Positions 3,842-52,297 of a stretch of DNA of 64,000 nt are shown here, piece after piece. The notes below the pieces were generated by a model, which ran no database searches, had not been told where the DNA came from, and saw only the letters and a program-made list of their open reading frames with translations. A program made the position numbers and the translations under genes. Source of the DNA: an uncultured Syntrophomonadaceae bacterium. GTDB taxonomy: Bacteria > Bacillota > Dethiobacteria > DTU022. Position 1 is the first letter of the stretch. The number at the start of each line of letters is the position of its first letter. The DNA is taken from the NCBI GenBank assembly GCA_964492615.1, contig CAZBKZ010000008.1:13865-77864 (forward strand). The letters are read 5' to 3'.

Positions 3842-3878
3842 AAAGACCTGCTTAAATAGAGCGGGTCTTTGTTTATTT
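3842..3878 (+). terminator. Rho-independent terminator after copA
   Basis: Hairpin aaaagacctgc...gcgggtctttt followed by a tttgtttattt run. Confidence 0.55.
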
Positions 3879-4030
3879 AATAACTCTTCACACTTTTTTG
3901 ATTGATTTAACTGAAGGTCACCGGCTTTTTTACCAGGGGATTATAAAAATTATTTATTTGGCAGGAATGATTATTAAAATATAGAATATAATTATAAACA
4001 AATATATAATTATACAGGAGGTTATCGGTT

Positions 4031-4627
4031 ATGAGTGTAAAAGTAGGCCAAAAAGCACCTGACTTTGAAGCAAACGTCTTTCATGAAGGGGCTTTTAAAA
4101 AAGTTAAACTTTCGGATTACCAGGGCAAATGGGTGATTATTTGTTTCTATCCCGGTGATTTCACCTTTGTCTGACCGACAGAATTGGCGTCAGTTGCCGC
4201 CAGGTATAAAGAAATCAAGGATCTTGATGCTGAAGTTTTATCCTGTAGTGTAGACAGCCAGTTTACTCATAAGATCTGGCAGGAAGTTGAACTTTCGAAG
4301 ATGGTTGAAGGAGGCGTTCCATACCCGATGATGGCAGATACCGGGGGGAAAATCGGTACCCTTTACGGTGTCTATGACGAAGAAGGCGGAGTTAATGTGC
4401 GCGGACGTTTCCTGATCGATCCCGACGGAGTTATCCAGGCTATGGAAGTTTTAACTCCCCCGGTTGGGCGCAATGTTGATGAGCTGATTCGTCAGCTTCA
4501 GGCATTCCAACATGTTCGTAAGACAAACGAGCCTACTCCTTCAGGCTGGAAACCGGGCAAGAAGTCGCTTAAGCCAGGGCCGGACCTTGTTGGCCGGGTT
4601 TGGGAAGCCTGGAAAATCGGAGACTAA
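4031..4627 (+). CDS. prxU: Selenocysteine-containing peroxiredoxin (AhpC/Tsa family, PrxU-like); UGA at 4172-4174 read as Sec at codon 48
   Basis: The ATG at 4031 has an AGGAGG RBS. Translation reads ...FYPGDFTFV-[TGA][13 protein letters not shown]..., so the UGA sits exactly where the peroxidatic Cys of the FTFVCPTE motif belongs. The listed ORF 4184..4627 is in the same frame and supplies the rest of the peroxiredoxin fold. A SECIS-like hairpin lies at 4184-4203. Confidence 0.7.
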
Positions 4628-4640
4628 AGGAGTATTGAAA

Positions 4641-4991
4641 GTGCTGTATTTTTATTGTGTTAAAACCTGAACAACCTGTCGTAAAGCGAAAGCGTGGCTT
4701 TCGGAAAGAAGGGTAACTTTTTCATATCGCGATATTATCAGGGAACCGCTGACGGAAGAAGAACTGATCAGGATGGCTTCCCTTAAGGATTTAACTGTTA
4801 AGGAGCTGTTAAACCCCGGGAGTACTGTTTTTAAAAAAATGGGCTTAAAGATCGAAGCGCTTGATGATAAACAGGCAGCAACTTTAATCAACGAAAATCC
4901 CAGGATCATGCGTAGACCTCTTTTAAGTAATGGTCGGGACCTGGTGATAGGTTTTGATGTGGAAGAGTATTCAACCCTGGCGGGTGTATAA
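4641..4991 (+). CDS. ArsC/Spx-family (YffB-like) thioredoxin-fold protein with selenocysteine; UGA at 4668-4670 as codon 10 gives a U-T-T-C redox motif
   Basis: GTG at 4641 has an AAAGGAG RBS. Translation reads VLYFYCVKT-[TGA]-TTCRKAKAWLSERRVTFSYRDI..., and continues in frame into the listed ORF 4773..4991. The Spx/ArsC family has CxxCRKAxxWL at this position. A perfect 7-bp hairpin CGAAAGC-gtg-GCTTTCG lies at 4687-4703, 17 nt after the UGA, consistent with a bacterial SECIS. Confidence 0.6.
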
Positions 4992-5015: not shown

Positions 5016-5050
5016 GCGGCCCCGGTTTCTAAAAAACCGGGGCTGTTTTA
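5016..5050 (+). terminator. Rho-independent terminator after the selenoprotein pair
   Basis: GC-rich hairpin gcggccccggttt/aaaccggggctgt followed by ttta. Confidence 0.6.
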
Positions 5051-16336: not shown

Positions 16337-18268
16337 ATGGTGCCGGTATTCATGCTGGAGGGCAGGCGCAATTATTTTTGCAGTAGGACAATATTTTATT
16401 TCTTAATTCTCGGAATAGTATTCTTTTCACTGCCGGCAGGCTTGGTGGAAGCCCGTTCGCTTGAAATTGTGGAGGTTGATATAAGAGCAGAAATATTACC
16501 CAATGGTGATCTCAGGGTAGTTGAGAGCCGTACTGTTGATTTCAATGGCCAGTTTCAGGGTATGTATCAGGAGATTGATTTTTTTGAAATTGAACTTTAC
16601 AGTGAAATAAATGTTCGTGAAGGAGACAATTATTACACAATTGTAGACCAATTTCCCACGACAGAACCGGGGACCTATTCGATCCAGGTTTATGGTGAAG
16701 ATTATTTTACCGTAGACTGGAGTTTTTATGCCCTGGATGAAAAAAGAACTTTTACACTTGAATATATTGCCCGTGATGTTGTTGTGGTTCATAACGACGT
16801 GGCTGAGTTTAATTACAAGTTCATCGGGGATCGCTGGGGTTTCCCCAGCAGCAGCGCTTTTGTCCGCTTAACTCTTCCCAATGGAGCGGAATCAGAAGAT
16901 GTAAGAGCCTGGGGGCATGGTCCGCGTAATGGTGAAATAGACATTATCAGCCCTTCCGAGATAACCTGGTGGGTGGCGCCTCTTCCAGCCAACACTTTTT
17001 TGGAGGGGCGGGTTACTTTTCCTGTTTCACTTGTTCCGGAGTCAGGCAGGTTTAGCGGCAGGGAAGCCCTGCCTGATATTTTAAAAGAAGAACAGCGCTG
17101 GGCAGCTTCTACAAATGCTTTGCGTTATGCTCATAAGTTTCAGGGCTACATAACCATTTTGCTGTTAGCCCTGGGAGGCTGGCGGTTGCTGGTTCTCTGG
17201 CGAAAAGCGCTGAACCGCAAGAGCGCCTACCGGGGCGATTATTATCGTGAGTTGCCCGGTGATTACTCTCCGGCTGCAGCAGGGTATCTTTGGAACAAGA
17301 AAAAGATCATGCCTGATAACCTGTCAGCCCAGATTCTTAACCTTGCCCGGTTGCGGCATTTAAAAATTGAAGAGATACCGGGTGGCGATGATTTTCAGCT
17401 GGTAGAACAGCAATCAGAGCGCCCTCTTTCCTCCCTGGACACCTTGATTATGGAATTTATATTTAAAACGGTTTATAAGCATTTTGCAACTGACGAGGAT
17501 AAGGAAAACGATGAAAAGGCTGGTCAATTGAGTAAGATAGTTACTTTTAAGCAAATACAGGAATATGCTAAGAAAAGGGCAAACCAGTTTTACAGCTTTT
17601 ACAACTCCTGGTCTTCAGCAGCAAAAAAAGCCGGAGAAGAACAAAAATTTTTTGGGAAAAGTTCTGCCTTTAACTGGGGATGTCTGCCGCTTATCCTGAT
17701 GATCGTACTAGCCCTAGTTGCCATGATCTGGTGGGAGCTATATCTTCTCGGTGTTATTCTGATTATACTGCCTTTCATTTTGTTTTTTGCATCGCCAAAT
17801 ACTTACTATACTGAATACGGTGCTGATCAGCTTATGAAATGGAGGGCTTTTCGTAAATTCCTGCTCCATTTTTCATCTATGGACCGTTCAGCGGTTCCTT
17901 CACTGGTTATCTGGGAGCATTATTTGGTTTATGCCGTGGTGCTTGGAGTGGCCAAACAGGTTATTGACCAACTTGCCCTTGTTTTCCCAAAACCAGAAAT
18001 TGATCCCACATTTAACCAGACCAGCTGGTCTGGTTTTGGTGCTGCACACAGCCTGGCGGCCATACACAGTATGAGCAGGATGACCACTTCCCTGAACAGG
18101 ACAATCAGCGGGGCCAGGCGCACGGCAAGTTCAACAATAGCTGCTTCAAGGTCCAGTTCGAGTTCCAGGTCTTCAGGCGGCTTTTCATCAGGCAGCGGCT
18201 TTGGCGGCGGTGGTTTTTCAGGCGGTGGTGGTGGCGGTTTTGGCGGTGGTGGCGGCGGCTTTCGTTAA
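16337..18268 (+). CDS. DUF2207-family membrane protein with C-terminal Gly-rich tail
   Basis: Signal/TM segment, large extracytoplasmic domain, multiple TM helices, terminal SGSGFGGGGFSGGGGGGFGGGGGGFR tail typical of DUF2207. The start codon is uncertain. Confidence 0.55.
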   Translation: MVPVFMLEGRRNYFCSRTIFYFLILGIVFFSLPAGLVEARSLEIVEVDIRAEILPNGDLRVVESRTVDFNGQFQGMYQEIDFFEIELYSEINVREGDNYYTIVDQFPTTEPGTYSIQVYGEDYFTVDWSFYALDEKRTFTLEYIARDVVVVHNDVAEFNYKFIGDRWGFPSSSAFVRLTLPNGAESEDVRAWGHGPRNGEIDIISPSEITWWVAPLPANTFLEGRVTFPVSLVPESGRFSGREALPDILKEEQRWAASTNALRYAHKFQGYITILLLALGGWRLLVLWRKALNRKSAYRGDYYRELPGDYSPAAAGYLWNKKKIMPDNLSAQILNLARLRHLKIEEIPGGDDFQLVEQQSERPLSSLDTLIMEFIFKTVYKHFATDEDKENDEKAGQLSKIVTFKQIQEYAKKRANQFYSFYNSWSSAAKKAGEEQKFFGKSSAFNWGCLPLILMIVLALVAMIWWELYLLGVILIILPFILFFASPNTYYTEYGADQLMKWRAFRKFLLHFSSMDRSAVPSLVIWEHYLVYAVVLGVAKQVIDQLALVFPKPEIDPTFNQTSWSGFGAAHSLAAIHSMSRMTTSLNRTISGARRTASSTIAASRSSSSSRSSGGFSSGSGFGGGGFSGGGGGGFGGGGGGFR

Positions 18269-19340: not shown

Positions 19341-19510
19341 TTTCTTATATATTCTTGTCCCCTTGTTTTACAGGCTTTGAACATGTTAATATAGGTAAGT
19401 GTATCAGAATTATCATGTTTAATTACAGCTGAATCAGAGTAGCTGAACATGGTGATTCAGGCTGGAAGGAATATGATAAAAAAGGTTTAGTGTTTGAGAG
19501 GGGTATTTTA

Positions 19511-20884
19511 ATGGCAGATTGTAAAACATGTGGTATGTCATACGACCGGAATCAATATCAGGTATGCCCTTACTGCGGGGAAGAGTCCGGGGAGGATTCT
19601 GTTATTAATAAAGAGATGTCGGGCAGTGGAGCGGCAGTAAAAGAATCTGCCGGTGGCAGTAATGATCAAAAAGAAAAAAACAGGGGCTCGCTTGATTCAG
19701 ATAAAAGATCTGCCGCTAGCAGTTTAAAATATATTATAACCGGTGCAGTTGTTCTGGCAATAATAGCTGCTGTTATCTATGCTATATTTGCTTTCAGCAA
19801 TTCAGGTATTACTGTTCCTGATAAATATCCTACAATCCAGGAAGCCATTGATGCTGCTGAAGACGGAGACGTTATTGTTGTTCAGGTTGGCGTATACAGG
19901 GAAAATCTAGATTTCAGGGGAAAAAATATAACCCTGCAAAGTGTTGATCCCGATGACGAGGCTATTGTAGAGGAAACAATAATTGACGGTGGCGGAAGTG
20001 GAACCGTAGTATCTTTTCGCAGTGGTGAAGGCGAAGGGGCTGTTTTAAGCGGTTTAACCATTACCAGGGGTAGCGGTGTGTTAATTTCCGGTGGTAGCTC
20101 ACCGGTGATTGAAAAATGTGTTATTGAGGACAATAACGCAGAATTTGGAGCCGGTATTGCTATATTTGATTCCGCCCCGACAATCAGGAATAATACCATT
20201 AGAGGTAATTCGGGCTTTCTTGGAGGCGGATTATACATAGAAGAATCCTCGCCTTTAATTGAAAACAATCTGATCACCGGTAACCGGGCCGAAATGGGTA
20301 GCGGGCTCGTGATTATTTCAAACTCAGCTCCCGAACTGGTCGGTAACAGTATTGATAATAATACGGCTACCAGATTAGGCGGTGGTGTTGTTGTGGCAGT
20401 CTATTCCACCCCTGCTATCCGGGATAATTCTATTACCAATAACCGTGCTGAACTTAACGGGGGGGGGCTGCTAATCGAAGAGTCAGAGCCTTCGGTAGAA
20501 GATAATTTCATTTCTGCTAACAGGGCGGCCAACGGTGGAGGTATTTTTGTTGTTAATACATTAAGCAAAGCACTGGTGATCAGGAACAATAATATTTCTG
20601 ATAACCTTTCCTATATTGCAGGAGGAGGTCTTTACCTGGAAGGTTCCTCTCCCACTGTCGAAAACAACGAATTTAAAAATAATATATCCGAATACCTGGG
20701 AGGGGGAGCGGCAATTAATAACTCAGCCCCGTTTTTTGGTTCTAATATTTTCGAAAATAACCAGGCGCAGGATGTTGGCAGCGGGGGAGCAGTGTGGATA
20801 TCTGAAAACTCGGTATATGAAACAGCCGAGCCCGATACAAATAGGTATACCCGGAATGTACCGGATGATCTGTTTCAGCAATAA
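19511..20884 (+). CDS. Zinc-ribbon / single-TM / right-handed parallel beta-helix repeat protein (paralog 1)
   Basis: N-terminal C-x2-C...C-x2-C zinc ribbon (CKTCG...CPYCG), hydrophobic TM anchor, then repeated ..GGG(L/I).I..S.P.I..N.I..N.A beta-helix turns (PbH1/NosD-like). Confidence 0.6.
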   Translation: MADCKTCGMSYDRNQYQVCPYCGEESGEDSVINKEMSGSGAAVKESAGGSNDQKEKNRGSLDSDKRSAASSLKYIITGAVVLAIIAAVIYAIFAFSNSGITVPDKYPTIQEAIDAAEDGDVIVVQVGVYRENLDFRGKNITLQSVDPDDEAIVEETIIDGGGSGTVVSFRSGEGEGAVLSGLTITRGSGVLISGGSSPVIEKCVIEDNNAEFGAGIAIFDSAPTIRNNTIRGNSGFLGGGLYIEESSPLIENNLITGNRAEMGSGLVIISNSAPELVGNSIDNNTATRLGGGVVVAVYSTPAIRDNSITNNRAELNGGGLLIEESEPSVEDNFISANRAANGGGIFVVNTLSKALVIRNNNISDNLSYIAGGGLYLEGSSPTVENNEFKNNISEYLGGGAAINNSAPFFGSNIFENNQAQDVGSGGAVWISENSVYETAEPDTNRYTRNVPDDLFQQ

Positions 20885-22710: not shown

Positions 22711-24375
22711 TTAAGACATCAGCTTGTTTTCACTTTCCAGCGCCTGGTAAGTTCGATATCCTCCGTTCAGATTCTTCACTTTTTTAAAATGTTTTTGTTT
22801 AAGAATTCTCTTGGCGAAATAAGAACGCAAACCTATACTGCAGTATGTTACTGTTTCTTTTTTCGGATCAAGCTCATTCACCCTCTCCCTGATTGCACCG
22901 AGGGGAATGTTGATGCTGCCGGCGATATTGCCTTCTTCATATTCTTCAACTTCCCGAACATCAATGATCTGCCGATCAGGGGTAAGATTATTTATAAGAT
23001 CTGCTGCTTCGGTTGTTTCATAGTCTGCATCAAGCAAATTAGAGGCAACAAAACCAACCATATTCACAGGGTCTTTTGCCGAAGAATAAGGAGGTGCATA
23101 GGATAGCTCGAGGTCGTGCAGGTCGTATACTGTAAGCCCGGCCCTGAGAGCGGTGGCAATTACGTCTATTCTTTTTTCAACACCACTGTAACCTACAGCC
23201 TGGGCCCCGAGGATGTTCCCTTCCGAGCTGAACAGTAGTTTCAGGGAGATGGGCTTGGCCCCGGGGTAATAACCGGCATGATCATTGGGATGAACAATTA
23301 TTTTATTATATTCAATATTTTCGGCCTGCAGTAATCTTTCATTGGCACCGGTTGTTGCTACTGTCATGTCAAATATTTTTAATACAGAGGTTCCCTGGGT
23401 TCCCTTGTAGCGATCTTTGCGTCCGGCAATATTGTTAGCGACGATCCGTCCCTGTTTGTTTGCCGGACCGGCCAGGGGGATAACTGCCGGTTTTCCTGTA
23501 ACAAGATGCTTAACTTCCACGGCATCACCAAGTGCAAAAATAGCCGGATCACTGGTTTGCATCCTGCTGTTTACAATAATGCCCCGGTTTACTTCTAGTC
23601 CAGACTCCGAAGCAAGCTTGATTTCCGGTTTTACACCGATTGAAAGAACTACCAGGTCAGTATTTAACATTTCACCATCGGACAGCTCAACGCTAAGGCT
23701 TTTATTATTACCCTCATGGAATTCTTTGACCCCATTCCCAAGGCGAAGATTCATGTTCATTTCACGCATGTATTGTTGCACCAGGGCAGCCATTTCGTGA
23801 TCGATGGGGGGTAAAACCTGGGGAGCAAGCTCAACCACGGTTATTTCAAGGCCCCTGTGCTGAAGGTTCTCGGCCATTTCCAGGCCTATATAGCCGGCCC
23901 CAACTACTACTGCTCTTCCGGGATTGGCAGTTCTGATAAAGTCAAAAAGCCTATCGGTGTCGCTCACGCTGCGCATACTGAAAATCTTTTTGTTATCAAT
24001 GCCTGGCAGGGGGGGGCGAATTGGCTCAGCTCCGGGAGATAAAACAAGATAATCATAATTTTCCCTGTAACTATCACCTGTCCGGAGATTGGAAATCTCA
24101 ACTTCCTTATTGTCTCGGTCAATTCTTACCGCTTCACTCTTTGTCCGTATATCGATATTAAACCAGCTTTTAAATTTTTCCGGGGTCATCACGAAAAGTT
24201 CTTCACGATCTTCGATGGTGCCGCCAATGTAATAAGGAAGGCCACAGTTGGCGTATGATATATATTCACCCTTTTCAATCAATATGATCTCTGCATTTTC
24301 ATTCAGCCGCCTCAGGCGAGCGGCGGTAGAAGCTCCTCCGGCTACGCCTCCGATTATTATAACTTTGTTTGCCAT
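22711..24375 (-). CDS. cdr: CoA-disulfide reductase / NADH oxidase family flavoprotein with C-terminal rhodanese domain (CoADR-RHD)
   Basis: FAD-binding GGVAGG, redox Cys in SYANCGLPY, C-terminal rhodanese with active-site CSIGLRS. The start at MANKVIIIGG follows an AGGGGGA RBS. Confidence 0.8.
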   Translation of the reverse strand: MANKVIIIGGVAGGASTAARLRRLNENAEIILIEKGEYISYANCGLPYYIGGTIEDREELFVMTPEKFKSWFNIDIRTKSEAVRIDRDNKEVEISNLRTGDSYRENYDYLVLSPGAEPIRPPLPGIDNKKIFSMRSVSDTDRLFDFIRTANPGRAVVVGAGYIGLEMAENLQHRGLEITVVELAPQVLPPIDHEMAALVQQYMREMNMNLRLGNGVKEFHEGNNKSLSVELSDGEMLNTDLVVLSIGVKPEIKLASESGLEVNRGIIVNSRMQTSDPAIFALGDAVEVKHLVTGKPAVIPLAGPANKQGRIVANNIAGRKDRYKGTQGTSVLKIFDMTVATTGANERLLQAENIEYNKIIVHPNDHAGYYPGAKPISLKLLFSSEGNILGAQAVGYSGVEKRIDVIATALRAGLTVYDLHDLELSYAPPYSSAKDPVNMVGFVASNLLDADYETTEAADLINNLTPDRQIIDVREVEEYEEGNIAGSINIPLGAIRERVNELDPKKETVTYCSIGLRSYFAKRILKQKHFKKVKNLNGGYRTYQALESENKLMS

Positions 24376-24538
24376 AACCTTATATCCCCCTTGAATTATC
24401 AATGTTAATTATTATAACATAATATTACAATATATCAATTTAATTTTAACCCTGGTTGACAAAATGATCAGCTTAAATTACGATTATCAGCAGCATTTGT
24501 TTCATTAAATTTTAATAAAGAATCGGGGAAGCGAAACA

Positions 24539-25294: not shown

Positions 25295-25415
25295 AAACTT
25301 CAGGTCTGAATGTTGGCTTTATGCAATATAATTGCCTTGAAGACCCATTTATTTTAAACAGCTAAACCTTAAAAAGTTTGGCCAGCCTGTTCCTGCCCAT
25401 TTGATTCACCGTTTC

Positions 25416-25444
25416 TTGACAGTTGAAGGACTGAAATGTAAAAT
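25416..25444 (+). promoter_or_regulatory. Sigma-70-type promoter for msrB (TTGACA, 17-nt spacer, TAAAAT)
   Basis: Consensus -35 and near-consensus -10 about 70 nt upstream of the msrB start. Confidence 0.4.
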
Positions 25445-25514
25445 AATATTAGTATATTATAATATAAAGATGCATAGACAAATCAATTTATGCTTGTTTA
25501 CAGGGGTGAGGCAA

Positions 25515-26066
25515 ATGAGAGATTCAACAGTTAAAATAATTATTTTATTTTTGGTGGTTTTGGCAACCCTGTTAACTGCCGGTTGTGCAGGGAATAGAGT
25601 TAGTGATTATAGCCGTGAAGAGTTTTTAGCCGAGGAGGATGAGATTGTGAATGATTTACGTGAACGTTTGACCGACCTACAGTATGCTGTTACGCAGGAG
25701 GATGCAACTGAACCGGCTTTTAAGAATGAATACTGGGATTTAAAAGAAGAAGGAATCTATGTAGATATTGTATCTGGAGAACCGCTATTCAGTTCGCTGG
25801 ACAAGTTCGATTCTGGTTCAGGATGGCCAAGCTTTACCCGGCCTATAGACGATAGTAGTATTGTTGAAAAGCAAGACATGGGTTTCGGTATGGTGCGTAC
25901 AGAAGTGAGAAGCAGTATCGCCGATTCACATTTGGGGCACCTGTTTCCTGACGGCCCCCAACCAACTGGTTTGCGCTACTGCATTAATTCAGCCGCCCTA
26001 AGATTCATTCCACGGGAGAGGCTTGAGGAAGAAGGTTATGGCAGCTATCTCAAGCTATTTGAATAG
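25515..26066 (+). CDS. msrB: Peptide-methionine (R)-S-oxide reductase MsrB, exported lipoprotein form
   Basis: Lipobox LLTAGC. MsrB core [22 protein letters not shown] and catalytic RYCINSAAL (Cys, not Sec). Confidence 0.8.
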
Positions 26067-33996: not shown

Positions 33997-35034
33997 ATGC
34001 GTAAAGGTAATCCGTTTGGCACACATCGGGTCATCGAGCCGAAAGGCCTGCTTCCCCAGCCGGCTGTAAAAATCGATAATGATATGGAAATATACGACAA
34101 TGAAGTACTGATCGATGTAGAAGTTTTAAACATTGATTCGGCCAGTTTTACCCAGATTGAAGAAGAGGCCGGTGGTGATGAAGCAAAAATAGCTGAAATT
34201 ATGACCGGTATAGTTGCTAAAAGAGGCAAACACCACAATCCTGTGACCGGTTCAGGGGGGATGCTGATCGGCAGGGCTGAGAAGATAGGCCCTAACTGGA
34301 ATGGGAAAACTCCCCTTAAAGAAGGGCAGCGTCTGGCCACCCTGGTTTCTCTCTCACTTACACCACTCAGAATTGATAAGATCAAGAGAATCCATAAAGA
34401 TATTGACCAGGTAGAAATTGAAGGTAAGGCAATTCTGTTTGAAAGTGGCATATTTGCAGTGTTGCCCGATGATTTGCCCCAGACTCTTTCCCTGGCAGTT
34501 TTGGATGTTGCCGGGGCTGCAGCTCAAACTGCAAAGCTGGTTAAGCCCGGCGACAAGGTAGCCATTATAGGGGCCGGCGGTAAATCGGGCCTGCTCTGCC
34601 TTTATGAAGCCAAGAAGAGAGCGGGTGTTACCGGCCAGGTAATTGGCATCGCTCCGCGGGAGGCCAGCATGAAAAGAGCGGAATCTACCGGTTACTGTGA
34701 TGCGGTACTAATGGCCGATGCTTCGGATGCTATTGATATTATGAATAAAGTTCAGGAAGTCACTGACGGTGCCATGGCTGATGTAACAATCAACTGTGTT
34801 AATATTCCCAACACCGAACTCTCCTCGATTCTGGCTACACGCGATGGTGGCATTGTTTATTATTTCAGCATGGCTACCTCTTTTACCGCGGCAGCACTGG
34901 GTGCTGAAGGTGTGGGTAAAGATGTTACAATGATTGTTGGTAACGGTTATACGAAAGATCATGCTGCTATATCACTGAATATTATGAGGGAAAGTCCGGT
35001 TCTGCGGAAAATATTTGAGGATTTATATACATAG
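33997..35034 (+). CDS. kdd: L-erythro-3,5-diaminohexanoate dehydrogenase-like protein
   Basis: 345 aa with a Rossmann GAGGKSG motif. Length and overall sequence fit the Kdd family as I recall it, and the co-location with kal and kce supports this. The call rests on resemblance from memory, not a database hit. Confidence 0.55.
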   Translation: MRKGNPFGTHRVIEPKGLLPQPAVKIDNDMEIYDNEVLIDVEVLNIDSASFTQIEEEAGGDEAKIAEIMTGIVAKRGKHHNPVTGSGGMLIGRAEKIGPNWNGKTPLKEGQRLATLVSLSLTPLRIDKIKRIHKDIDQVEIEGKAILFESGIFAVLPDDLPQTLSLAVLDVAGAAAQTAKLVKPGDKVAIIGAGGKSGLLCLYEAKKRAGVTGQVIGIAPREASMKRAESTGYCDAVLMADASDAIDIMNKVQEVTDGAMADVTINCVNIPNTELSSILATRDGGIVYYFSMATSFTAAALGAEGVGKDVTMIVGNGYTKDHAAISLNIMRESPVLRKIFEDLYT

Positions 35035-35227
35035 GGTTTAGGAAGGGGAAACGTTACTTTCTGAACTAAGCGAATATTTTGCCTGACTCCTTTTATCATG
35101 TTATTGGAAATATCCGCCATCCGGTTTCCGGGGGAGGTGCAATGGCATAAATTAAAGATTCATCTCTCGGCTTATACTTGCAGTTTAAAATGCTAAAACA
35201 AAATAACTCAAAAGGAGTGATTTTTTA

Positions 35228-36379
35228 ATGCGTGTAGCAGTAGTTGGCGGAAGTGGTGAGATGGGTTCTGCGGCATCTTACGACCTGATGAAGAGCGAGG
35301 GTGTCGAACAGGTTGTTTTGTTGAGCAGAAGAGCAAAAAAAGAGAATTTGCATCCCAAGCTGGCAGCCAGTGAAAAGGTATCGGTAAAGAATGTCGATGT
35401 AAACGATACTGAACAACTGGTAAAGTATCTAAAGGATTTTGATGCTGTTGTCAACTGTGTCGGACCTTTCTTTTCAACCGGGTATAAGGTTGTTAAAGCG
35501 GCTATCCAGGCCGGGGTTCATTACGTAGATATCGACGACGATTATGATTCAGTCAAGTTGATGTTAGACCCCGAACTGGATCGCCAGGCAAAAGAAGCAG
35601 GGATAACTGTTTTATATTCAATGGGTGCAGATCCTGGCACAGGTAACATTTTGGCCAGGAAAGCATGTGACGAAATGGACCAGGTTGATATTGTTGATTT
35701 TTACTGGGTCCTCGGTGCATATGACTGCACTGGTAAAGCAGTATGGGAACACGTATTACATATGAATACCGGTATGGTTCCGCAATTCATTGACGGCAGG
35801 CTGCAGGACGTTCCGGCTGGCTCCGAAGTTGAAGTGGTAGATTTTATTGAACCGTTTGGTGCCTGTGAAGTGCATTTTGTCGGCCACCCGGAGCCACTTA
35901 CCTTCCCCAAATATTTTCTCGATAAAGGGGTTAAGCGGGTAACGAACAAGGGCGGTATGTTGCCCAAGTGGGTTAATGACGATATAAGGGTTCAGAATAA
36001 CTGGGGTTTTACTGGAACTGAACCTATAGAGGTCAATGGACAGATGGTTTCTCCTCATGACATGGCACTGGAACTATGGCGTGAAAGGCCGCCTCAGGGC
36101 GATTTGGGCCAGTATACATCAGGTGTCAAGGTTATCATTAAAGGGGTTAAAGATGGTAATGCTATTACCACTACTTATGATATAGCAGGCAATACGGCCC
36201 CCGGAACCGGGATACCGCCTTCTATCGGAGCGCAGATGATTGTCAGGGGAGATATAACTGAGCGTGGGGTCTTGCCTCCAGAGGCATGCGTCGACCCCCA
36301 GATATACCTCGATGAGTTTGTCAAGAGAAAAGCAGTGATTTATGAAAATCGTCACGTTGAAAATATTATAAAAAAATAA
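35228..36379 (+). CDS. Saccharopine-dehydrogenase-like NAD(P)-binding protein (PF03435-like)
   Basis: N-terminal VAVVGGSGEMG Rossmann motif and Sdh-family architecture; 383 aa. Inserted between kdd and kal. Confidence 0.55.
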   Translation: MRVAVVGGSGEMGSAASYDLMKSEGVEQVVLLSRRAKKENLHPKLAASEKVSVKNVDVNDTEQLVKYLKDFDAVVNCVGPFFSTGYKVVKAAIQAGVHYVDIDDDYDSVKLMLDPELDRQAKEAGITVLYSMGADPGTGNILARKACDEMDQVDIVDFYWVLGAYDCTGKAVWEHVLHMNTGMVPQFIDGRLQDVPAGSEVEVVDFIEPFGACEVHFVGHPEPLTFPKYFLDKGVKRVTNKGGMLPKWVNDDIRVQNNWGFTGTEPIEVNGQMVSPHDMALELWRERPPQGDLGQYTSGVKVIIKGVKDGNAITTTYDIAGNTAPGTGIPPSIGAQMIVRGDITERGVLPPEACVDPQIYLDEFVKRKAVIYENRHVENIIKK

Positions 36380-36559
36380 AGAGTAAGTAGGTAGGATAAC
36401 CGGCCAAAGATGCATGGGGTTCAATTACTACAGCGCGATATCATGATTAATCGACCGATCAGCCATATCCCGGTAGCTGTCCCAGGGCACGGTTAATTAT
36501 CTGTAAAAGCGTCCTGCCTGAAGTATTATGGTTTTACTCCGAAGGAGGAAGCAGTAAAG

Positions 36560-37012
36560 ATGATTAATGAAAAAGTTATGCTGCGGATGCGTATCAGCAG
36601 CCAGGATGTTCATTACGGCGGCGGTTTGGTAGACGGCGCTCAGGTAGTAAAATTATTTGGCGATGTGGCAACCGAACTATTAATTCGTCATGATGGTGAT
36701 GAAGGGTTGTTCGTGGCCTACGATATGGTTGAATTTAAAATGCAGCTTTGCGCCGGTGATTTCCTCGAAGTCTGGGGCTGGATTGACAAGGTTGGCAACT
36801 CTTCGAGACACATGCAGTTTGAAGCTTATAAAGTAATTACCAATGCAGGAATAGTTGATAAACCTTCTGCGTGTGATATGCTGGAAGAACCGGTTCTCCT
36901 GGCCCGGGCCAGCGGCACCTGTGTTGTTCCGCTTGAACTGCAAAGAGGGCCTCAGATCAGCAAGTACCTAAAACCGGAAAGCCGCGATACAGGAGGTTGT
37001 AAAAATGGATAA
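36560..37012 (+). CDS. kal: 3-aminobutyryl-CoA ammonia-lyase-like hotdog-fold protein
   Basis: Small (~150 aa) hotdog-fold-like protein lying between kdd and kce, as in the lysine-fermentation cluster. The call is based on context and resemblance. Confidence 0.5.
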   Translation: MINEKVMLRMRISSQDVHYGGGLVDGAQVVKLFGDVATELLIRHDGDEGLFVAYDMVEFKMQLCAGDFLEVWGWIDKVGNSSRHMQFEAYKVITNAGIVDKPSACDMLEEPVLLARASGTCVVPLELQRGPQISKYLKPESRDTGGCKNG

Positions 37013-37817
37013 ACTGATTATTACCGCCGCCCTGACCGGCGCCGAAGTTACAAGGGAGCACAATCCCAACCTGCCAGTAACACCGGCTGAGATTGCCGAG
37101 GCTTCTTATGACTGTTTTAATGCAGGGGCTTCGATGGTTCATGTTCATGTACGTAATCAGGATGGAGCACCGACGCAGTCTGCTGATGTTTTCAAAGAAA
37201 CAATGGAGCTGATCAAGGAAAAATGCAATATCATTGTTCAAACATCAACTGGTGGTGCCGTGGGCATGCCCGCCGAGGAGAGACTGCAGCCAGTTTATCT
37301 TAAGCCTGAGATGGCCACTCTCTCAACCGGCTCGGTAAACTTTGGTGATGACGTTTTTTTGAACCCCCCGGCTTACCTTGAAGAATTTGCCAGGGTGATG
37401 AAGGAGCAGGGTGTAAAGCCCGAGATAGAGGCATTTGATGTAGGGATGATTAACAATGCTCTGTATTTATTAAAAAAAGAATTAATATCGTCTCCGATTC
37501 ATTTTGACTTTGTGATGGGTGTCCCAGGTGGAATACCGGGAACGGTTAAAAACCTGCTGCATATGGTGGAGAGTATACCGGCAGGCAGTACCTGGACAGT
37601 GGCAGGTATGGGAAGAACAGAATTGCCCCTTGGCACGGCAGCGATTATCATGGGGGGTAATGTAAGGGTCGGTTTTGAGGATAATATATATTATGAAAAA
37701 GGAGTTCTGGCCGAAAGCAACGCTCAATTAGTTGAGCGCATAGCGCGTATTTCCAAAATACATGGTCGGGAAGTGGCTTCTCCGGATGAAGCACGGCAGA
37801 TTCTTGGGCTGAAGTAA
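37005..37817 (+). CDS. kce: 3-keto-5-aminohexanoate cleavage enzyme (BKACE/DUF849 family)
   Basis: N-terminal M.KLIITAALTGAE... and overall TIM-barrel BKACE hallmarks; 270 aa; overlaps the kal stop codon. Confidence 0.7.
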   Translation: MDKLIITAALTGAEVTREHNPNLPVTPAEIAEASYDCFNAGASMVHVHVRNQDGAPTQSADVFKETMELIKEKCNIIVQTSTGGAVGMPAEERLQPVYLKPEMATLSTGSVNFGDDVFLNPPAYLEEFARVMKEQGVKPEIEAFDVGMINNALYLLKKELISSPIHFDFVMGVPGGIPGTVKNLLHMVESIPAGSTWTVAGMGRTELPLGTAAIIMGGNVRVGFEDNIYYEKGVLAESNAQLVERIARISKIHGREVASPDEARQILGLK

Positions 37818-37844
37818 TTTATAACTAAAGCAGGTATTTTTTAA

Positions 37845-37880
37845 AAGACCTTCCTTAAATGAGGGAGGTCTTACCTTTTT
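37845..37880 (+). terminator. Rho-independent terminator after kce
   Basis: aagaccttcc-ttaaatga-gggaggtctt, then accttttt. Confidence 0.6.
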
Positions 37881-38062
37881 ACAGGGAAACAAACGACACC
37901 GGGTATATTGTTTAAGTATCAGTTTTGGTAACAGGACAGGCTAAAGGTAATTCCTGTAACTGGAGCGTTTTTAATTTGACTGATTAAACTATCATTTGCC
38001 CGTCATAAAAAAAAATAGTAACATGAAAAAATAAAAAACTGTAGCATGGAAGGGTGACAAAC

Positions 38063-39313
38063 ATGGAATCAAAACCAAGATTAAAGCTGGAAAAGTCGCT
38101 GGCCTTGTTTGAGGAAGCAAAAAAATTGTCTCCGGGCGGGGTTATGGGAATCAGGAGACCTTATAATTTTGTTGAGGGTGAATACCCGATTTACCTCAGT
38201 CATGGACGTGAAGGCCATATTTTTGATGTAGACGGCAACGAATATATAGATATGTTGTGTGCCTATGGACCGATTATCTTAGGCTACAGCGAACCGGAAA
38301 TTAACAGGGCAGTAGTGGAGCAGATGGAAAAGGGCTTTTGCTTTTCCCTGGTTCAACCGATTCAAAATGATTTAATGAAACGTTTGATTAATCTAATCCC
38401 ATCGGCAGAAATGGGACTACTGCTGAAAACAGGCTCCGATGCAACGGGTGTTGCGGTGCGTATTGCAAGGGGTTATAGTGGCAAAGATCTGATTTTGCGC
38501 TGCGGTTACCACGGATGGATGGATTGGTGTGTTGAGGTACCTGGTGGTGTTTCGAAAAAGATTCGTGACCTGACCCTGGATTTTCCTTATGGCGATCTGG
38601 ATGCCCTGGAAGCATTAATCCTTTCAAATAAAGATGATGTTGCCTGTATTATTCTCACGCCGGTTGGTCATCCGCTTGCCGAGCCTGTTGTTGCTCCTCC
38701 CAGGGGTTACCTGGAAGGAGTGCGTGCTCTGGCTGATAAGTATAAAATCATTTTAATTTTTGATGAGATCCGCACCGGTTTCAGGGTTGCAATGGGGGGA
38801 GCTCAGGAGCGTTATGGTGTAGTCCCCGACATGACAACTGTTGGTAAAGCCCTGGCTAATGGCTACGCTATTAGTGCCTGTCTGGGTAAAGCGGAAATAA
38901 TGAAAGTAGCGGAAAAAGAAGTGTTTGTCAGCTCAACTTTTTTCCCCAACAGCCTGGCCATGGTTGCAGCTATGAAATGTCTTGATATCCTTGAACGGGA
39001 AAATGTAATTGAAACTGTCTGGCAGCGTGGTGAGAGATTTCTGAGTGAACTCGGCAAGGCAGTTTCTGCATCAAAAGTGCCGGCAACTGTATCTGGTATT
39101 CCGCCCATGCCATTTTTAACTTTTGACAAAGTAGATAATCTGTACAGTAAGCGGCGTATAGATTTTTACACCGAAACAATCAGGCGCGGTCTCTTTATCC
39201 AACCTTATCACCACTGGTATATTTCATACCGGCATACTGAAGATGATATGGATCAGGCCCTTTGCGCTATTAAAGAAGCCCTGCAAATTGTGGCACAGAG
39301 GTACCCATATTAA
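38063..39313 (+). CDS. Class-III aminotransferase-fold enzyme, glutamate-1-semialdehyde 2,1-aminomutase-like
   Basis: N-terminal KSLALFEEAKKLSPGGV resembles HemL. PLP-lysine region TVGKALANGY. Own promoter and terminator context; start at 38063 after a GGAAGGG RBS. Confidence 0.6.
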   Translation: MESKPRLKLEKSLALFEEAKKLSPGGVMGIRRPYNFVEGEYPIYLSHGREGHIFDVDGNEYIDMLCAYGPIILGYSEPEINRAVVEQMEKGFCFSLVQPIQNDLMKRLINLIPSAEMGLLLKTGSDATGVAVRIARGYSGKDLILRCGYHGWMDWCVEVPGGVSKKIRDLTLDFPYGDLDALEALILSNKDDVACIILTPVGHPLAEPVVAPPRGYLEGVRALADKYKIILIFDEIRTGFRVAMGGAQERYGVVPDMTTVGKALANGYAISACLGKAEIMKVAEKEVFVSSTFFPNSLAMVAAMKCLDILERENVIETVWQRGERFLSELGKAVSASKVPATVSGIPPMPFLTFDKVDNLYSKRRIDFYTETIRRGLFIQPYHHWYISYRHTEDDMDQALCAIKEALQIVAQRYPY

Positions 39314-45787: not shown

Positions 45788-47329
45788 ATGAGTAGAACCG
45801 GTATACTGATTAACAAGCCATATAAAAAGCTCAGCAGGGAGCAGGTTGAACTTATTGATCAAACCTCTCTTGAGCTCTTACAAACCCCCGGGATATTATG
45901 CTATCACGAAGAAAGTACCACCCTTTTTGAAAAGGAAGGCGCAAAAATAAAAAAAACCAAAGAAGGTGAACATGATGCCTGGTGGATTAGTATTCCACCC
46001 GGAGTTGTAAAGAGTGCTCTTGAGTCTGCTCCGGCCAGGGTTACCCTGGGTGCCCGCAATCCCGAAAATAGGGTAGTTTTAGACGCAGAAGGAAACAGGG
46101 TCTACTTCGGCACTGGTTCTGAAACTAATTACTGGCTGGAAATCGAGCCGGAGGAATTTACTTCTGATAAAGATGGGGCCAGGAGAACATTTGCGGTTAT
46201 GAAAAAAAGCCGGGGCAGCCTTAACCTGCTCTGCCGATCAGCTCATCTGGCAGAACAGCTGGAAAATCTCGATTTTTTTATCCGCAATGTTAATATTCAG
46301 GATTCTGATATTACAACAGGCAATAAAGACGTCAACGTATTTTTTGCTTCACTTAACCATCTGACTAAACCTGTTATCGGTGGGGTTGCTGATTATGAGC
46401 AGCTGGAAAAAATTGTTAGAATAGCTGAAATAATTGCCGGAGGAAGAGAGCAATTGAGGGAAAATCCCCTGGTTGCATTCATAACCAGCGTTATAAAAAG
46501 CCCGCTGCAGGTTGTTGATGATACCGCAGAAAAGTTAATTGCCATTGCCAGGCTCGGATTGCCTGTTGTTATTTCTACTTCTCCTCAGGGAGGATCAACA
46601 GCGCCTATCGATATGCTGGGTATGGTTGCCCAGGTTAATGCCGAAGCCCTGGCCGGTATAACCATTAATCAGCTTGCCAGTCGCGGCGCACCGGTGATTT
46701 ACGGGGCTGTCCCAGTCAGAGCCAGGATGGATGACTTGCATGACATGTACGGGGTCCCTGAATTCTGTCAATACACTATGGCCTGTGCACAGATGGCCAG
46801 GTATTACGGGGTGCCCTGTTATTCCACGGCAGGGGTTGGCGATGCCAAGGTTCCTGGTATTCAGGCAACAATGGAAAAAATGTACACCCATAGCATGGTT
46901 CCGCTTGCTGCTCCTGACCTGGTGCATTATTCTTTTGGGCTTCTTGACAAGACTCAGACTTATAGTCCGGAACAGGCAGTGCTGGATAATCATCAGATTG
47001 GCATGGTAAAATTTTTGCAAAGAGAACAGGAAGTTAATAGCAATTCAGCAGCTAAAACTAAGAAAATGATAGCTGACGTTATGCACAGCCCATACAGGAT
47101 GTATGCCCGTTATGCCAGGGGGATGCTCAGGCGTGGGGAAATTTTCGCCGGATTTCCTTTTGAAGGGAAATTGGAAGATCAGGACCAGACTTTGCTTAAG
47201 GTGCATGAAAAATTTGCTGAATTGGAAGCGGCTAAACCTAAATACCTGCCGGAAGATACCTGTAAATTAATCTTTAATGAAATATCCGGGCTTCTTCCGC
47301 GGCTTAATCCTTATGGGGAGGTTAAATAA
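45788..47329 (+). CDS. MttB-superfamily methyltransferase lacking pyrrolysine (glycine betaine/quaternary-amine:corrinoid methyltransferase-like, MtgB-type)
   Basis: 513-aa uninterrupted ORF (no in-frame TAG) with MttB-family TIM-barrel sequence features. Directly followed by a corrinoid protein gene. Confidence 0.8.
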   Translation: MSRTGILINKPYKKLSREQVELIDQTSLELLQTPGILCYHEESTTLFEKEGAKIKKTKEGEHDAWWISIPPGVVKSALESAPARVTLGARNPENRVVLDAEGNRVYFGTGSETNYWLEIEPEEFTSDKDGARRTFAVMKKSRGSLNLLCRSAHLAEQLENLDFFIRNVNIQDSDITTGNKDVNVFFASLNHLTKPVIGGVADYEQLEKIVRIAEIIAGGREQLRENPLVAFITSVIKSPLQVVDDTAEKLIAIARLGLPVVISTSPQGGSTAPIDMLGMVAQVNAEALAGITINQLASRGAPVIYGAVPVRARMDDLHDMYGVPEFCQYTMACAQMARYYGVPCYSTAGVGDAKVPGIQATMEKMYTHSMVPLAAPDLVHYSFGLLDKTQTYSPEQAVLDNHQIGMVKFLQREQEVNSNSAAKTKKMIADVMHSPYRMYARYARGMLRRGEIFAGFPFEGKLEDQDQTLLKVHEKFAELEAAKPKYLPEDTCKLIFNEISGLLPRLNPYGEVK

Positions 47330-48028
47330 ATGAGCAGTGATCTGCTTGAATTAATTGTAGAGAATGTTTTACAGGGTCGTCGTAACAGTGATGATGAAGG
47401 CATTGAGGAAGGAGATTTTGGTCAACCAGGGGTTGCTGAGCTGGTTGCCAGGGCCCTTGAAGATGGCATTAATACGGAACAGGTTCTCATAGATGGGCTC
47501 AGCCGTGGGATGCAGATGGTCGGTGACAAGTACGAAAGCGGTGAATACTTTATTCCTGATATGCTCACTGCAGCCGAAGCAGTGGAAGCCGGAATGGCTG
47601 TTCTGGAACCGTACCTGGTCAGCGGAGGTGAAAAGGCCGGCCGGGGTAAAATAGTAATGGCAACGGTTGAAAAAGATCTGCATGATATTGGCAAGAACCT
47701 TGTAACCATAATGCTCAAGGGGGCAGGCTTTAACGTGATTGACCTGGGAATTGATGTGCCGGCTGCCCGAGTGGTTGAGGTAGCTGAGCAGGAAGGCGCT
47801 GCCGTAATCGGTCTTTCGGCTTTACTTAACACTACAATGTCCAACATGAGTGAAGTGGTTAAGCTGCTTGAGGAGAAAGGGCTTCATGACCGCATCAAGG
47901 TATTAATTGGCGGTGCACCCGTATCCGATGATTTTGCAAGGGAAATCGGTGCAGATAGTTATGGCAAAGATGCTTTTGCGGCGATAAAAGAAGCAGAAAA
48001 ACTAATTGTATCCGGAGGGAATGTATAA
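47330..48028 (+). CDS. Cobalamin-binding corrinoid protein (MtbC/MtgC-like)
   Basis: N-terminal B12-binding-2 helical cap plus a Rossmann-like B12-binding domain with DxHxxG (DLHDIGKNLV); 232 aa. Confidence 0.8.
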   Translation: MSSDLLELIVENVLQGRRNSDDEGIEEGDFGQPGVAELVARALEDGINTEQVLIDGLSRGMQMVGDKYESGEYFIPDMLTAAEAVEAGMAVLEPYLVSGGEKAGRGKIVMATVEKDLHDIGKNLVTIMLKGAGFNVIDLGIDVPAARVVEVAEQEGAAVIGLSALLNTTMSNMSEVVKLLEEKGLHDRIKVLIGGAPVSDDFAREIGADSYGKDAFAAIKEAEKLIVSGGNV

Positions 48029-48029
48029 A

Positions 48030-49280
48030 ATGGAAGCTGACCAGGCATACCTGGAAGCCATACAACATGGTCGCTACAGTGAAAAAGTAAAAGGGTTACG
48101 CTGTAAGTATGATCACGTGCGCATACAATTTGAAGATTTCATTACAGCGTATTACCTGAGACCTTACCTGGAAGAAATGATGGAGCAGAAGCTTAACGGA
48201 GAAGAAAATGAAGGATTGCGTTTTTTTGATCTTGGCTGTGGAACTGGAGATGGATATGAACTGCTCTGCAAAATGGCAGGAGATACAAAACTGGCCGAGT
48301 TTGATACAAGGTTAATTCAGGAAGATATGGTACAACAGTACAAGGGGATTGACTTAAATATAGCCCTGCTTAAAGAAGCCAGGGAGTTATTTGGGCACTA
48401 TGAAAATGTTGATTTCTGCAAGGGTAATTTTTCTGAAGGTTTACCCCTGGAAGAAGGGGAAGAACCATATGATCTATATTTTACTTCCTACGGCACGCTT
48501 TCACACTGTAATGACGAAGAACTGGAAAGATTGTTTATTGATATTGCGAAACATGGGCGAGACGGCAGCCTGATCCTGGGAGACTTTATTGGCCGTTATT
48601 CGTATGAGTGGCAGGATACCTGGACGGTTCAACCCGAAGAACAGCCCTTTATTGACTATAAAATAAATTACCTGTATGCAGAAGAACAAAGGGATGAAGT
48701 GGATGTATCATCATTCCCGCTCCGACTGATGTCTCCGGTGGAATTGGACCAGATAATAGACGATGCCTCCCGGAAGAGCGGGGTCAGGTTGGAAGTATTG
48801 AAATACTTTGACCGCTCTCTTTTTATCGGCCGGCATATAGAAACAGGTACATATAACGGCAACCCTCAGCCACTGCGGCTTATGGTTTCGTCACTCTTTG
48901 AAAGAGGTTTGCGTACATATTTCCCCGATCTGAAAGTAAGTTTTCAGCCAAAAGAGGGTTTTAAACACGTGAATGAAGCGCTCCAGGTGTTGGCAGACAG
49001 CTGGAACAGCCTGCTTGACTATACAATGCTGTTAATGGAGCATTATGATGATGGGGAAGAACTGCTTCCCTACCCACCACAAACAGATATTAAATCTTTG
49101 GAGAAAGCATACAGGGTGATGCGACAAACCCTGGAGGGAAGCAGGGGGCTTTACGGTGATATCCGGGCGGATCTTATCGAAGCCCAGCTCGGTTATGCCC
49201 TGCGCAGCCTGGAAATGGGTCTGCAGAATGGCACCGGGGTTGGTCATGGACTGGTTGCTGTGATCCGGGTTAATAAGTAA
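48030..49280 (+). CDS. Class I SAM-dependent methyltransferase with a long C-terminal extension, embedded in the corrinoid methyltransferase locus
   Basis: Motif I FDLGCGTGDG and motif post-I (DLYFTSYG); about 416 aa. The start at 48030 is 8 nt after a GGAGGGA RBS and 1 nt after the corrinoid-protein stop. Confidence 0.55.
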   Translation: MEADQAYLEAIQHGRYSEKVKGLRCKYDHVRIQFEDFITAYYLRPYLEEMMEQKLNGEENEGLRFFDLGCGTGDGYELLCKMAGDTKLAEFDTRLIQEDMVQQYKGIDLNIALLKEARELFGHYENVDFCKGNFSEGLPLEEGEEPYDLYFTSYGTLSHCNDEELERLFIDIAKHGRDGSLILGDFIGRYSYEWQDTWTVQPEEQPFIDYKINYLYAEEQRDEVDVSSFPLRLMSPVELDQIIDDASRKSGVRLEVLKYFDRSLFIGRHIETGTYNGNPQPLRLMVSSLFERGLRTYFPDLKVSFQPKEGFKHVNEALQVLADSWNSLLDYTMLLMEHYDDGEELLPYPPQTDIKSLEKAYRVMRQTLEGSRGLYGDIRADLIEAQLGYALRSLEMGLQNGTGVGHGLVAVIRVNK

Positions 49281-49658
49281 AAGGGTTCTATGTACTCAAT
49301 ATCTATGATAATAAGCGCTGGGCTATAATCAGGCATGATTATCTGTCTTTAATCTTTCTAAAAGCGCAATTGCTTTGAATAAAGCATTTTAATGACGTAT
49401 ATCTGTCATATACGGTATTTGAATAAGGAAGCTTAATATGAAATAATTAATATATATTAATATGCACCAGTTCGTATTCATAAAAATCAAATATTATTCA
49501 AATTAACTTCACAACATCGCTATGTCTTATTTTAATTAATTTGTCAGGTAATGTGATTATAATAATCACTTATTTTGGTTTGCACCTGGTATAAAGTAGT
49601 GTGCTACTATTTTTGTTTTGCGCATTATTACAGAGAAAGGAAGGGTGATTGATAATAA

Positions 49659-51508: not shown

Positions 51509-51511
51509 TCG

Positions 51512-52234: not shown

Positions 52235-52297
52235 TCATTTTAAGGTTTGGCTATTTTCCCATATGAGCAAATACCTGAAGGGGGTAAATCTATTAAA

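Follow-up and report, generated by a model that had tools for sequence, protein, structure and literature searches.

A probable selenocysteine peroxiredoxin gene of the PrxU family and an adjacent UGA-containing Spx/ArsC-like gene in an uncultured Syntrophomonadaceae bacterium

The peroxiredoxin gene and its in-frame TGA

The DNA stretch analyzed here (the window) comprises 64 kb of contig CAZBKZ010000008.1 from an uncultured Syntrophomonadaceae bacterium (assembly GCA_964492615.1). At 4031–4627 on the forward strand it carries a peroxiredoxin gene, prxU, in which the codon of the peroxidatic residue is an in-frame TGA, followed within a few codons by a hairpin resembling a bacterial selenocysteine insertion sequence (SECIS). 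The reading of this gene as a UGA-containing peroxiredoxin of the PrxU type with a SECIS-like hairpin downstream, put forward in a first-pass annotation made from the letters of the window, is supported by the analyses described below. The elements of the gene are:

3958–3987, forward strand: promoter-like site 5' of prxU, TTGGCA-18 nucleotides (nt)-TAGAAT, a pattern match from a consensus scan (10 of 12 matches)
4017–4022, forward strand: putative ribosome-binding site AGGAGG of prxU, read from the sequence, 8 nt 5' of ATG 4031
4031–4627, forward strand: prxU coding sequence, AhpC/Prx1-type peroxiredoxin of 198 amino acids with selenocysteine (Sec) as predicted residue 48
4172–4174, forward strand: in-frame UGA, the putative Sec codon at the peroxidatic position, read from the sequence and from the comparison with homologues
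4185–4202, forward strand: putative bacterial SECIS hairpin of prxU, stem 4185–4191/4196–4202, apical loop AGUU at 4192–4195

A terminator-like hairpin at 3842–3870 closes the preceding copA-like gene, and the promoter-like site comes after it. Starting from ATG 4031 the prxU frame runs through 47 sense codons to the TGA at 4172–4174 and continues in the same frame to TAA 4625–4627; on re-reading, this layout agrees with the first-pass annotation, which had taken the open reading frame (ORF) 4184–4627 as the in-frame continuation. The N-terminal 47 amino acids alone match positions 1–40 of the Pfam domain AhpC-TSA (E=1.5e-12), removing the concern that the codons upstream of the TGA might not be peroxiredoxin-like, and the C-terminal 147 amino acids alone match positions 47–123 (E=1.6e-16). 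As the two halves on either side of the UGA match one AhpC-TSA domain, 4031–4627 is a single peroxiredoxin gene, which is broken only by the TGA. The joined protein, with U read as C, matches AhpC-TSA with E=2.1e-38 and additionally contains a 1-cysPrx_C domain.

Moreover, the protein belongs to the curated PrxU family. With U replaced by C it scores 362.4 bits against the NCBIfam equivalog NF040737 (peroxi_PrxU; cutoff 270, E=1.1e-108), as expected from its initial assignment as PrxU-type, and it stays below the cutoff of the AhpC equivalog TIGR03137 (190.8 vs. 272). It covers positions 35–231 of the 233 positions of the NF040737 profile and is therefore a short form. The protein aligns without gaps to structures of 2-Cys peroxiredoxins (6j13, E=2.8e-51; human Prx2, 7kj1, E=1.2e-50), and in both alignments the UGA coincides with the peroxidatic Cys of FTFVCPTE, exactly where the first-pass annotation had placed it. 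The active-site residues P41, T45, U48 and R124 are arranged in the motif P41xxxT45xxU48, i.e., the PxxxTxxU motif given for Sec-peroxiredoxins in PMC13188914, and the positions P41, T45, 48 and R124 are conserved in an alignment of 45 relatives. The position of the resolving Cys of 2-Cys peroxiredoxins is occupied by T169 (EPTPSGW in the window vs. EVCPAQW in protein P0108), so that the resolving Cys within a C-terminal EVCPxxW motif, which defines a typical 2-Cys peroxiredoxin, is lacking. Cys38 is shared throughout the sub-clade; Cys71 occurs only in the Syntrophomonadaceae clade.

Beyond the Syntrophomonadaceae clade, most relatives of PrxU, Sec and Cys forms alike, bear an N-terminal extension of 35–45 amino acids with a conserved Cys motif (approximately D/S-C-V-x-P-A-x-G-P-I), which is absent from the window protein. 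Examples of this long form are found in loci L033–L087 (e.g., L041, L052 and L085–L087) and in the proteins P0019, P0021 and P0043. The Cys of the extension may act as an internal resolving Cys.

The TGA at the catalytic codon is shared by the relatives. A scan of species-representative genomes resulted in 583 matching stretches, from which the 80 best loci were taken, representing the nearest relatives and not a random sample. In total, 84 gene copies were recovered, from four contigs of the lineage of the window and from 78 of these 80 loci, two of which contain two copies; the loci L051 and L059 were missed by the pattern search and are hence outside this count. TGA is present at the peroxidatic codon in 84/84 recovered copies. 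At least seven phyla are represented among the best 80 of the 583 loci, which include Bacillota with uncultured Syntrophomonadaceae, Chloroflexota with Anaerolineae, Ignavibacteria, Thermodesulfobacteriota and furthermore Actinomycetota, Armatimonadota, Calditrichota and others. The closest of these 80 loci, from a metagenome-assembled genome (MAG) of an uncultured Syntrophomonadaceae bacterium, shows 98% identity, placing the window in the Syntrophomonadaceae. In two loci, L074 (at 2140 and 3142) and L083 (at 166 and 1165), from genomes labelled Cytophagia and Calditrichota, two TGA-bearing peroxiredoxin paralogues are located approximately 1 kb apart, and one paralogue per pair reads LLFYP, not LCFYP.

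In protein databases the codon is recorded differently. Among the 120 best hits residue 48 is given as "W" in 86 and as Cys in 27, and five are truncated fragments of 147 amino acids. For two of the "W" proteins (four loci) the DNA was checked and the codon is TGA in all of them; under translation table 11 these loci do not yield the "W" protein of the database. The "W" entries probably stem from gene calling with a code in which TGA encodes Trp, applied to short contigs. Public gene calls misrepresent the selenoprotein either as a split into 47 and 147 amino acids or as an uninterrupted protein in which residue 48, encoded by TGA, is given as Trp (loci L001–L004 and L089–L094; proteins P0001–P0010 and P0012).

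The hairpin downstream of the UGA

The stem of the prxU hairpin is formed by UGGCG (4185–4189) and CGCCA (4198–4202) and begins after a spacer of 10 nt from the UGA. This stem and its position had been recognized in the first-pass annotation and were borne out, and the loop of 8 nt proposed there, UCAGUUGC, was refined by the comparison with relatives, according to which C4191 pairs with G4196, U4190 and C4197 are mismatched and a loop of 4 nt, AGUU, remains. The U·C mismatch at 4190/4197 is found in the lineage of the window; most other lineages have G-C there. The structure shared by 79 distinct homologous sequences consists of a stem of seven positions with an invariant C-G closing pair and a 4-nt loop NGUN, and the loop nucleotides G4193 and U4194 are invariant in 79/79.

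The hairpin was assessed by explicit pair counts and by the entropy at synonymous sites in place of RNAalifold. Across the 79 sequences, fourfold-degenerate third positions on either side of the UGA show an entropy of 1.5–1.97 bits while the amino acids are conserved, and this conservation of the amino acids with free synonymous change shows that both sides of the UGA are under purifying selection. The third-position entropy is only 0.14–0.68 bits from codon +4 to codon +10 after the UGA, a stretch that corresponds exactly to the hairpin. By explicit counting, 89% of cells are paired in the hairpin register, double-sided changes occur in four of the seven stem pairs (16 cells), and the observed covariation score was reached by 0/500 column shuffles. 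If the partner strand is slid by 3 nt it pairs almost as well (87.8%), owing to a GCC repeat, but with little covariation. As examples, the stems of L055 (UUAACAGC-GGUC-GCUGUUAA) and of L092, which belongs to a U-A-T-E subgroup (UCUCUGC-GGUC-GCAGAGA), are largely rewritten and still fully paired in the same register. The hairpin is thus constrained at the level of the RNA in the sequences compared.

A published model for the bacterial SECIS (PMC13188914, Fig. 2A) comprises an apical loop of 3–9 nt, an upper stem of 4–16 bp, a G at loop position 1 or 2 that is usually followed by G or U, a spacing of 16–37 nt from the UGA to this loop and a minimum free energy (MFE) of −7.5 kcal/mol or lower. 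The hairpin of the window falls within these ranges, with an MFE that is marginal. Its loop AGUU has 4 nt, and its stem has seven positions with one U·C mismatch, most relatives forming six to seven continuous pairs. A distance of 17 nt (4175–4191) separates the UGA from the loop, and the MFE is −7.6 kcal/mol for 4172–4216, the hairpins of relatives reaching −17.8 and −18.5 kcal/mol. The loop G is in a suitable position in A-G-U-U only if C4191 and G4196 pair; the 8-nt loop UCAGUUGC does not agree with the model. The support for the hairpin of the window is comparative in nature. Rfam gave no match at the UGA of prxU or at that of the adjacent gene, neither at gathering thresholds nor at E values up to 10.

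Decoding of the UGA and alternative explanations

We consider it very probable that 4031–4627 is a selenocysteine peroxiredoxin gene of the PrxU family, in which the UGA at 4172–4174 is read as Sec and the hairpin at 4185–4202 serves as bacterial SECIS. As in known bacterial Sec decoding, the hairpin would recruit SelB carrying Sec-tRNA(Sec), resulting in insertion of Sec48 at the UGA. Following the chemistry of peroxiredoxins, Sec48 in the PxxxTxxU pocket, activated by T45 and R124, would attack the peroxide and thereby form a selenenic acid. Due to the replacement of the resolving Cys by Thr169, an intersubunit disulfide cycle between the peroxidatic and the resolving Cys cannot operate, and the enzyme is probably recycled by an external reductant. 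Oxidized PrxU would then be reduced in the style of 1-Cys peroxiredoxins by an external thiol or selenol, e.g., of a thioredoxin-type protein. Furthermore, prxU appears to be co-transcribed with an Spx/ArsC-like gene encoding a UxxC motif (4641–4991). This neighbor, starting 14 nt downstream, has an in-frame TGA and a conserved hairpin of its own and provides independent evidence that the organism decodes Sec.

Several observations weigh against this reading. The uniform TGA count describes a sub-clade, and Cys forms, the 27 among the 120 best protein hits, are found slightly further out. No selA, selB, selD or tRNA-Sec was found in the window, of which approximately 50 ORFs were scanned with Pfam or NCBIfam, or in flanks of 10 kb on each side, taken from longer public contigs; no tRNA genes of any kind are present in the 64-kb window and Rfam finds no tRNA-Sec there. 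The hairpin of the window is weak, i.e., it contains the U·C mismatch and at its MFE of −7.6 kcal/mol (z=−0.42) 66 of 200 shuffled sequences fold as well or better, and RNAalifold applied to the 79 aligned sequences did not return the short hairpin. Finally, four Cys-form homologues keep three to six of the seven stem pairs in the same register, a partial pairing that arises because the peptide ELAAVAA tends to be encoded by self-complementary GCN codons.

The partial hairpin of the Cys forms, the energetically unexceptional hairpin of the window and the missing Sec machinery in the window and its 10-kb flanks would also fit a selenium-free read-through of the UGA by near-cognate tRNA-Trp or tRNA-Cys, which would yield small amounts of a protein with Cys or Trp, the hairpin being a by-product of encoding the peptide ELASVAA. 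This is highly improbable in view of the synonymous sites, which are held fixed solely along the hairpin and, among the sampled sequences, solely in TGA forms. As an example, codon +5 is GCG in 52 of the 53 TGA forms with Ala at this position, whereas the four Cys forms have GCA, ACG, GCG and GCC, and unlike in the TGA forms their codon choices and loops vary. Moreover, the loop G-U is invariant and changes in the stem are compensated, the adjacent gene has its own UGA and hairpin, and NCBI named the family after PrxU, a biochemically verified selenoprotein. Even less credible is a pseudogene or split gene, in which the TGA would truly terminate translation and leave either a non-functional peroxiredoxin or two polypeptides, of 47 and 147 amino acids. 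Automatic gene calls on identical contigs do give two ORFs of these sizes and Sec machinery is not seen locally, but a TGA kept at the catalytic codon in every recovered copy across many phyla and purifying selection in one frame on both sides of it argue against a decaying gene. The putative restart codon TTG 4184 has no ribosome-binding site and is CTG in 24/79 relatives, so that translation of the C-terminal part from a start of its own is not a conserved feature, and a peroxiredoxin without the N-terminal strands of its fold and without the peroxidatic residue would be inactive.

A change of the genetic code, with TGA as a sense codon for Trp (code 4) or Gly (code 25) and consequently Trp or Gly as residue 48, would account for the database entries reading FTFVWPTE, i.e., for the W at residue 48 in 86/120 of the best protein hits. 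Its probability is next to nil. The W residues that were checked are TGA codons in the DNA, and TGA acts as a stop codon in 14 of 50 other Pfam-supported genes of the window (TAA in 29, TAG in 7), which end at their expected full length and include gatA and gatB. When the whole window was scanned for ORF pairs connected by a single TGA, only two credible cases emerged, prxU and its neighbor; apart from these two redox genes, the scan gave none of the in-frame TGA codons at conserved Trp or Gly positions that housekeeping genes would contain under such a code. Furthermore, an enzyme with Trp or Gly as its peroxidatic residue would be catalytically inactive.

The adjacent gene, genomic surroundings and known systems

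The gene following prxU and the elements associated with it are:

4627–4632, forward strand: putative ribosome-binding site AAGGAG of the neighbor, 8 nt 5' of GTG 4641, sharing its first base with the end of the prxU stop codon
4641–4991, forward strand: probable second selenoprotein gene, Spx/ArsC-related thioredoxin-fold protein of 116 amino acids, motif C6-x3-U10-x2-C13
4668–4670, forward strand: in-frame UGA within the Spx/ArsC-like gene, at the position of Cys10 in the CxxC motif of Spx
4687–4703, forward strand: putative SECIS hairpin of the neighbor, 7-bp stem CGAAAGC/GCUUUCG, loop GUG at 4694–4696
5019–5043, no strand assigned: GC-rich inverted repeat GCCCCGGTTT...AAACCGGGGC followed by the T-run TGTTTTATT, a terminator-like end of the two-gene operon

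The ORF starts with GTG 4641 and reads MLYFYCVKT-UGA-TTCRKAKAWL.... The encoded protein scores 89 bits against TIGR01617, the Spx/MgsR-ArsC-related subfamily (cutoff 75.05), with the redox dyad U10-x-x-C13 present, and it stays below the cutoffs of the Spx equivalogs. With 33.6 bits vs. a cutoff of 85 for NF041106 (ArsC_rel_Se_1, ArsC family selenoprotein), the profile score places it outside of this curated subfamily. It aligns without gaps to residues 2–110 of Spx structures with an E value of about 1e-19, the UGA being located on Cys10 of Spx. In Spx, Gly52 and Arg60 are needed for binding to the C-terminal domain of the RNA polymerase alpha subunit and for activation, and the C-terminal tail is a further Spx feature. 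The neighbor has Thr and Gly at the positions of Gly52 and Arg60, and with 116 vs. 131 amino acids approximately 15 C-terminal residues are missing, so that the hallmarks of a bona fide Spx transcription regulator are absent.

Every copy of the neighbor found by tblastn in the loci retrieved contains the TGA (17 loci of other genomes and metagenomes as well as six contigs of the lineage of the window), and no Cys variant was observed among them. It is located, always with TGA, directly 3' of the Sec-peroxiredoxin in 15/29 loci of the Syntrophomonadaceae/Bacillota clade and in L089 and L090. In its hairpin CGAAAGC-GUG-GCUUUCG, which has a free energy of −10.4 kcal/mol, the loop follows the UGA at a distance of 23 nt. 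The core of this hairpin, GCGAAAGCGTGGCT, is identical in 15/15 distinct relatives including the synonymous sites, and the full stem is kept in 12/15, the exceptions being the degenerate copy in L012 and two copies in which the final base of the stem is changed from G to C. Degenerate copies of the neighbor, with a premature stop or a frameshift soon after the SECIS region, occur in L012 (at about 3643) and in L016 (at about 3396).

Together, prxU and its neighbor appear to form a two-selenoprotein operon, and the pair is bracketed by the promoter-like site at 3958–3987 and the GC-rich terminator hairpin at 5019–5043. The conserved pairing suggests the neighbor as a candidate partner for recycling or sensing of a peroxiredoxin without resolving Cys. 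A more far-reaching proposal, which is tentative and rather unlikely to hold, is that the two proteins form a dedicated two-selenoprotein redox relay, the UxxC protein representing an undescribed subfamily restricted to the Syntrophomonadaceae clade. In such a relay the oxidized Sec-peroxiredoxin lacking a resolving Cys would in turn oxidize the selenol/thiol pair of the neighbor, which would act either as a private reductant or as a peroxide-sensing selenenylsulfide switch, analogous to the relays from peroxiredoxins to transcription factors. The idea that the neighbor substitutes for the Cys-bearing N-terminal extension of the long-form proteins is not supported, as L021, L024 and L026 have both and approximately half of the short-form loci lack the neighbor. 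Operons pairing a peroxiredoxin with SelW-like selenoproteins are on record, and a limited literature search, constituting weak negative evidence, retrieved no record of a peroxiredoxin paired with an Spx-like selenoprotein. The Sec-containing Spx/ArsC-like neighbor is more noteworthy than prxU and is the only part with some potential for novelty.

The surroundings of the pair (39–29000 of the window) are dense in genes of metal and redox homeostasis, encoding CysK, an Rrf2 regulator, a CopA-type P-type ATPase, ZnuABC with a Fur-family regulator, a DtxR-family repressor and FeoB. Within this region a flavoprotein resembling CoA-disulfide reductase with a rhodanese domain is encoded at 22711–24402 and MsrB with an N-terminal extension of approximately 89 amino acids at 25401–26066. 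Genes of the lysine-fermentation type follow at 33997–39313, i.e., 3,5-diaminohexanoate dehydrogenase (33997–35034), a beta-keto acid cleavage enzyme (37005–37817) and a class-III aminotransferase (38054–39313). Three ORFs were considered as Sec machinery on account of their size and rejected: 16337–18268 (643 amino acids) is a DUF2207 protein, 19490–20884 (464 amino acids) a NosD-like beta-helix protein and 33997–35034 (345 amino acids) the lysine-fermentation dehydrogenase.

Further downstream on the forward strand, 45788–53218 contains an MttB-family gene (45788–47329), a corrinoid (B12)-binding protein (47330–48028) and an ABC transporter of the glycine-betaine type (49659–53218, OpuAC), a domain content that suggests a quaternary-amine methyltransferase system. 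A second member of the MttB family is encoded by ORF 53906–55360, inside which the Rfam family PYLIS_3, the pyrrolysine insertion sequence of mttB, matches above the gathering score (52.8 bits, 54866–54965, forward strand). Use of pyrrolysine at this site was rejected, since the codon at the pyrrolysine position is ACA and not TAG and the MttB-family ORF of 484 amino acids is uninterrupted. The ORF is a non-pyrrolysine homologue of MttB, and the match to PYLIS_3 reflects the homology of the coding sequences.

As a summary, prxU is an instance of a known, widespread and curated family, and nothing conceptually new on Sec-peroxiredoxins results from it. PrxU of Eubacterium acidaminophilum is described as a selenocysteine peroxiredoxin (Sohling et al. 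2001, as cited in PMC13188914), and this review from 2026, citing the work on E. acidaminophilum, counts peroxiredoxin (PF00578, TxxU) as a prokaryotic selenoprotein with experimental verification. A survey from 2006 (PMC1794560) reported 12 Sec-peroxiredoxins in bacterial genomes, among them that of Syntrophomonas wolfei, a member of the same family as the window with SelD and a Sec-peroxiredoxin, and also listed ArsC-like selenoproteins. Regarding the rarity claimed in the first-pass annotation, the limitation of biochemical characterization to E. acidaminophilum stands, whereas the notion of a second example does not, 12 genomes being on record by 2006 (PMC1794560). Sec forms of the peroxiredoxin also dominate the closest database relatives of the window protein. 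The finding matters mainly for annotation, as it indicates that selenoproteins in such MAGs are systematically mis-recorded. Moreover, as judged from the two adjacent genes with UGA and SECIS, this uncultured Syntrophomonadaceae lineage probably uses selenium.

Judged by the NF040737 profile and by published descriptions, the window protein shares with PrxU of E. acidaminophilum and the family NF040737 the AhpC/Prx1-type fold, the UGA at the peroxidatic position of PxxxTxxU and the SECIS immediately downstream. It differs from many relatives within NF040737 in lacking the N-terminal extension of approximately 35–45 amino acids with the Cys motif C-V-x-P-A-x-G-P. With typical 2-Cys peroxiredoxins such as human Prx2 (1QMV/7KJ1) and the cyanobacterial enzyme (6J13) it shares the gapless end-to-end alignment, the Pro/Thr/Arg residues and the 1-cysPrx_C domain, whereas Sec is predicted in place of the peroxidatic Cys and Thr169 (EPTPSGW) is found in place of the resolving Cys. 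Cys-form members of the sub-clade, i.e., the "thioredoxin-dependent peroxiredoxin" of Aggregatilinea lenta (P0021) and the MAG protein P0019, are 65–70% identical to the window protein, have the [C/U]PTE signature and likewise lack the resolving Cys (EVTPSGW and EVLPAGW); in contrast, Cys-form members have TGC or TGT for TGA, their downstream codons are not fixed to the SECIS sequence and not all of them have the loop G-U. Similarly, the neighbor shares with Spx of B. subtilis (1Z3E/3GFK) the Spx/ArsC thioredoxin-like fold with redox dyad positions 10 and 13, and differs from it by a UxxC motif with the predicted Sec at position 10, a shorter C-terminus and an extra conserved Cys6.

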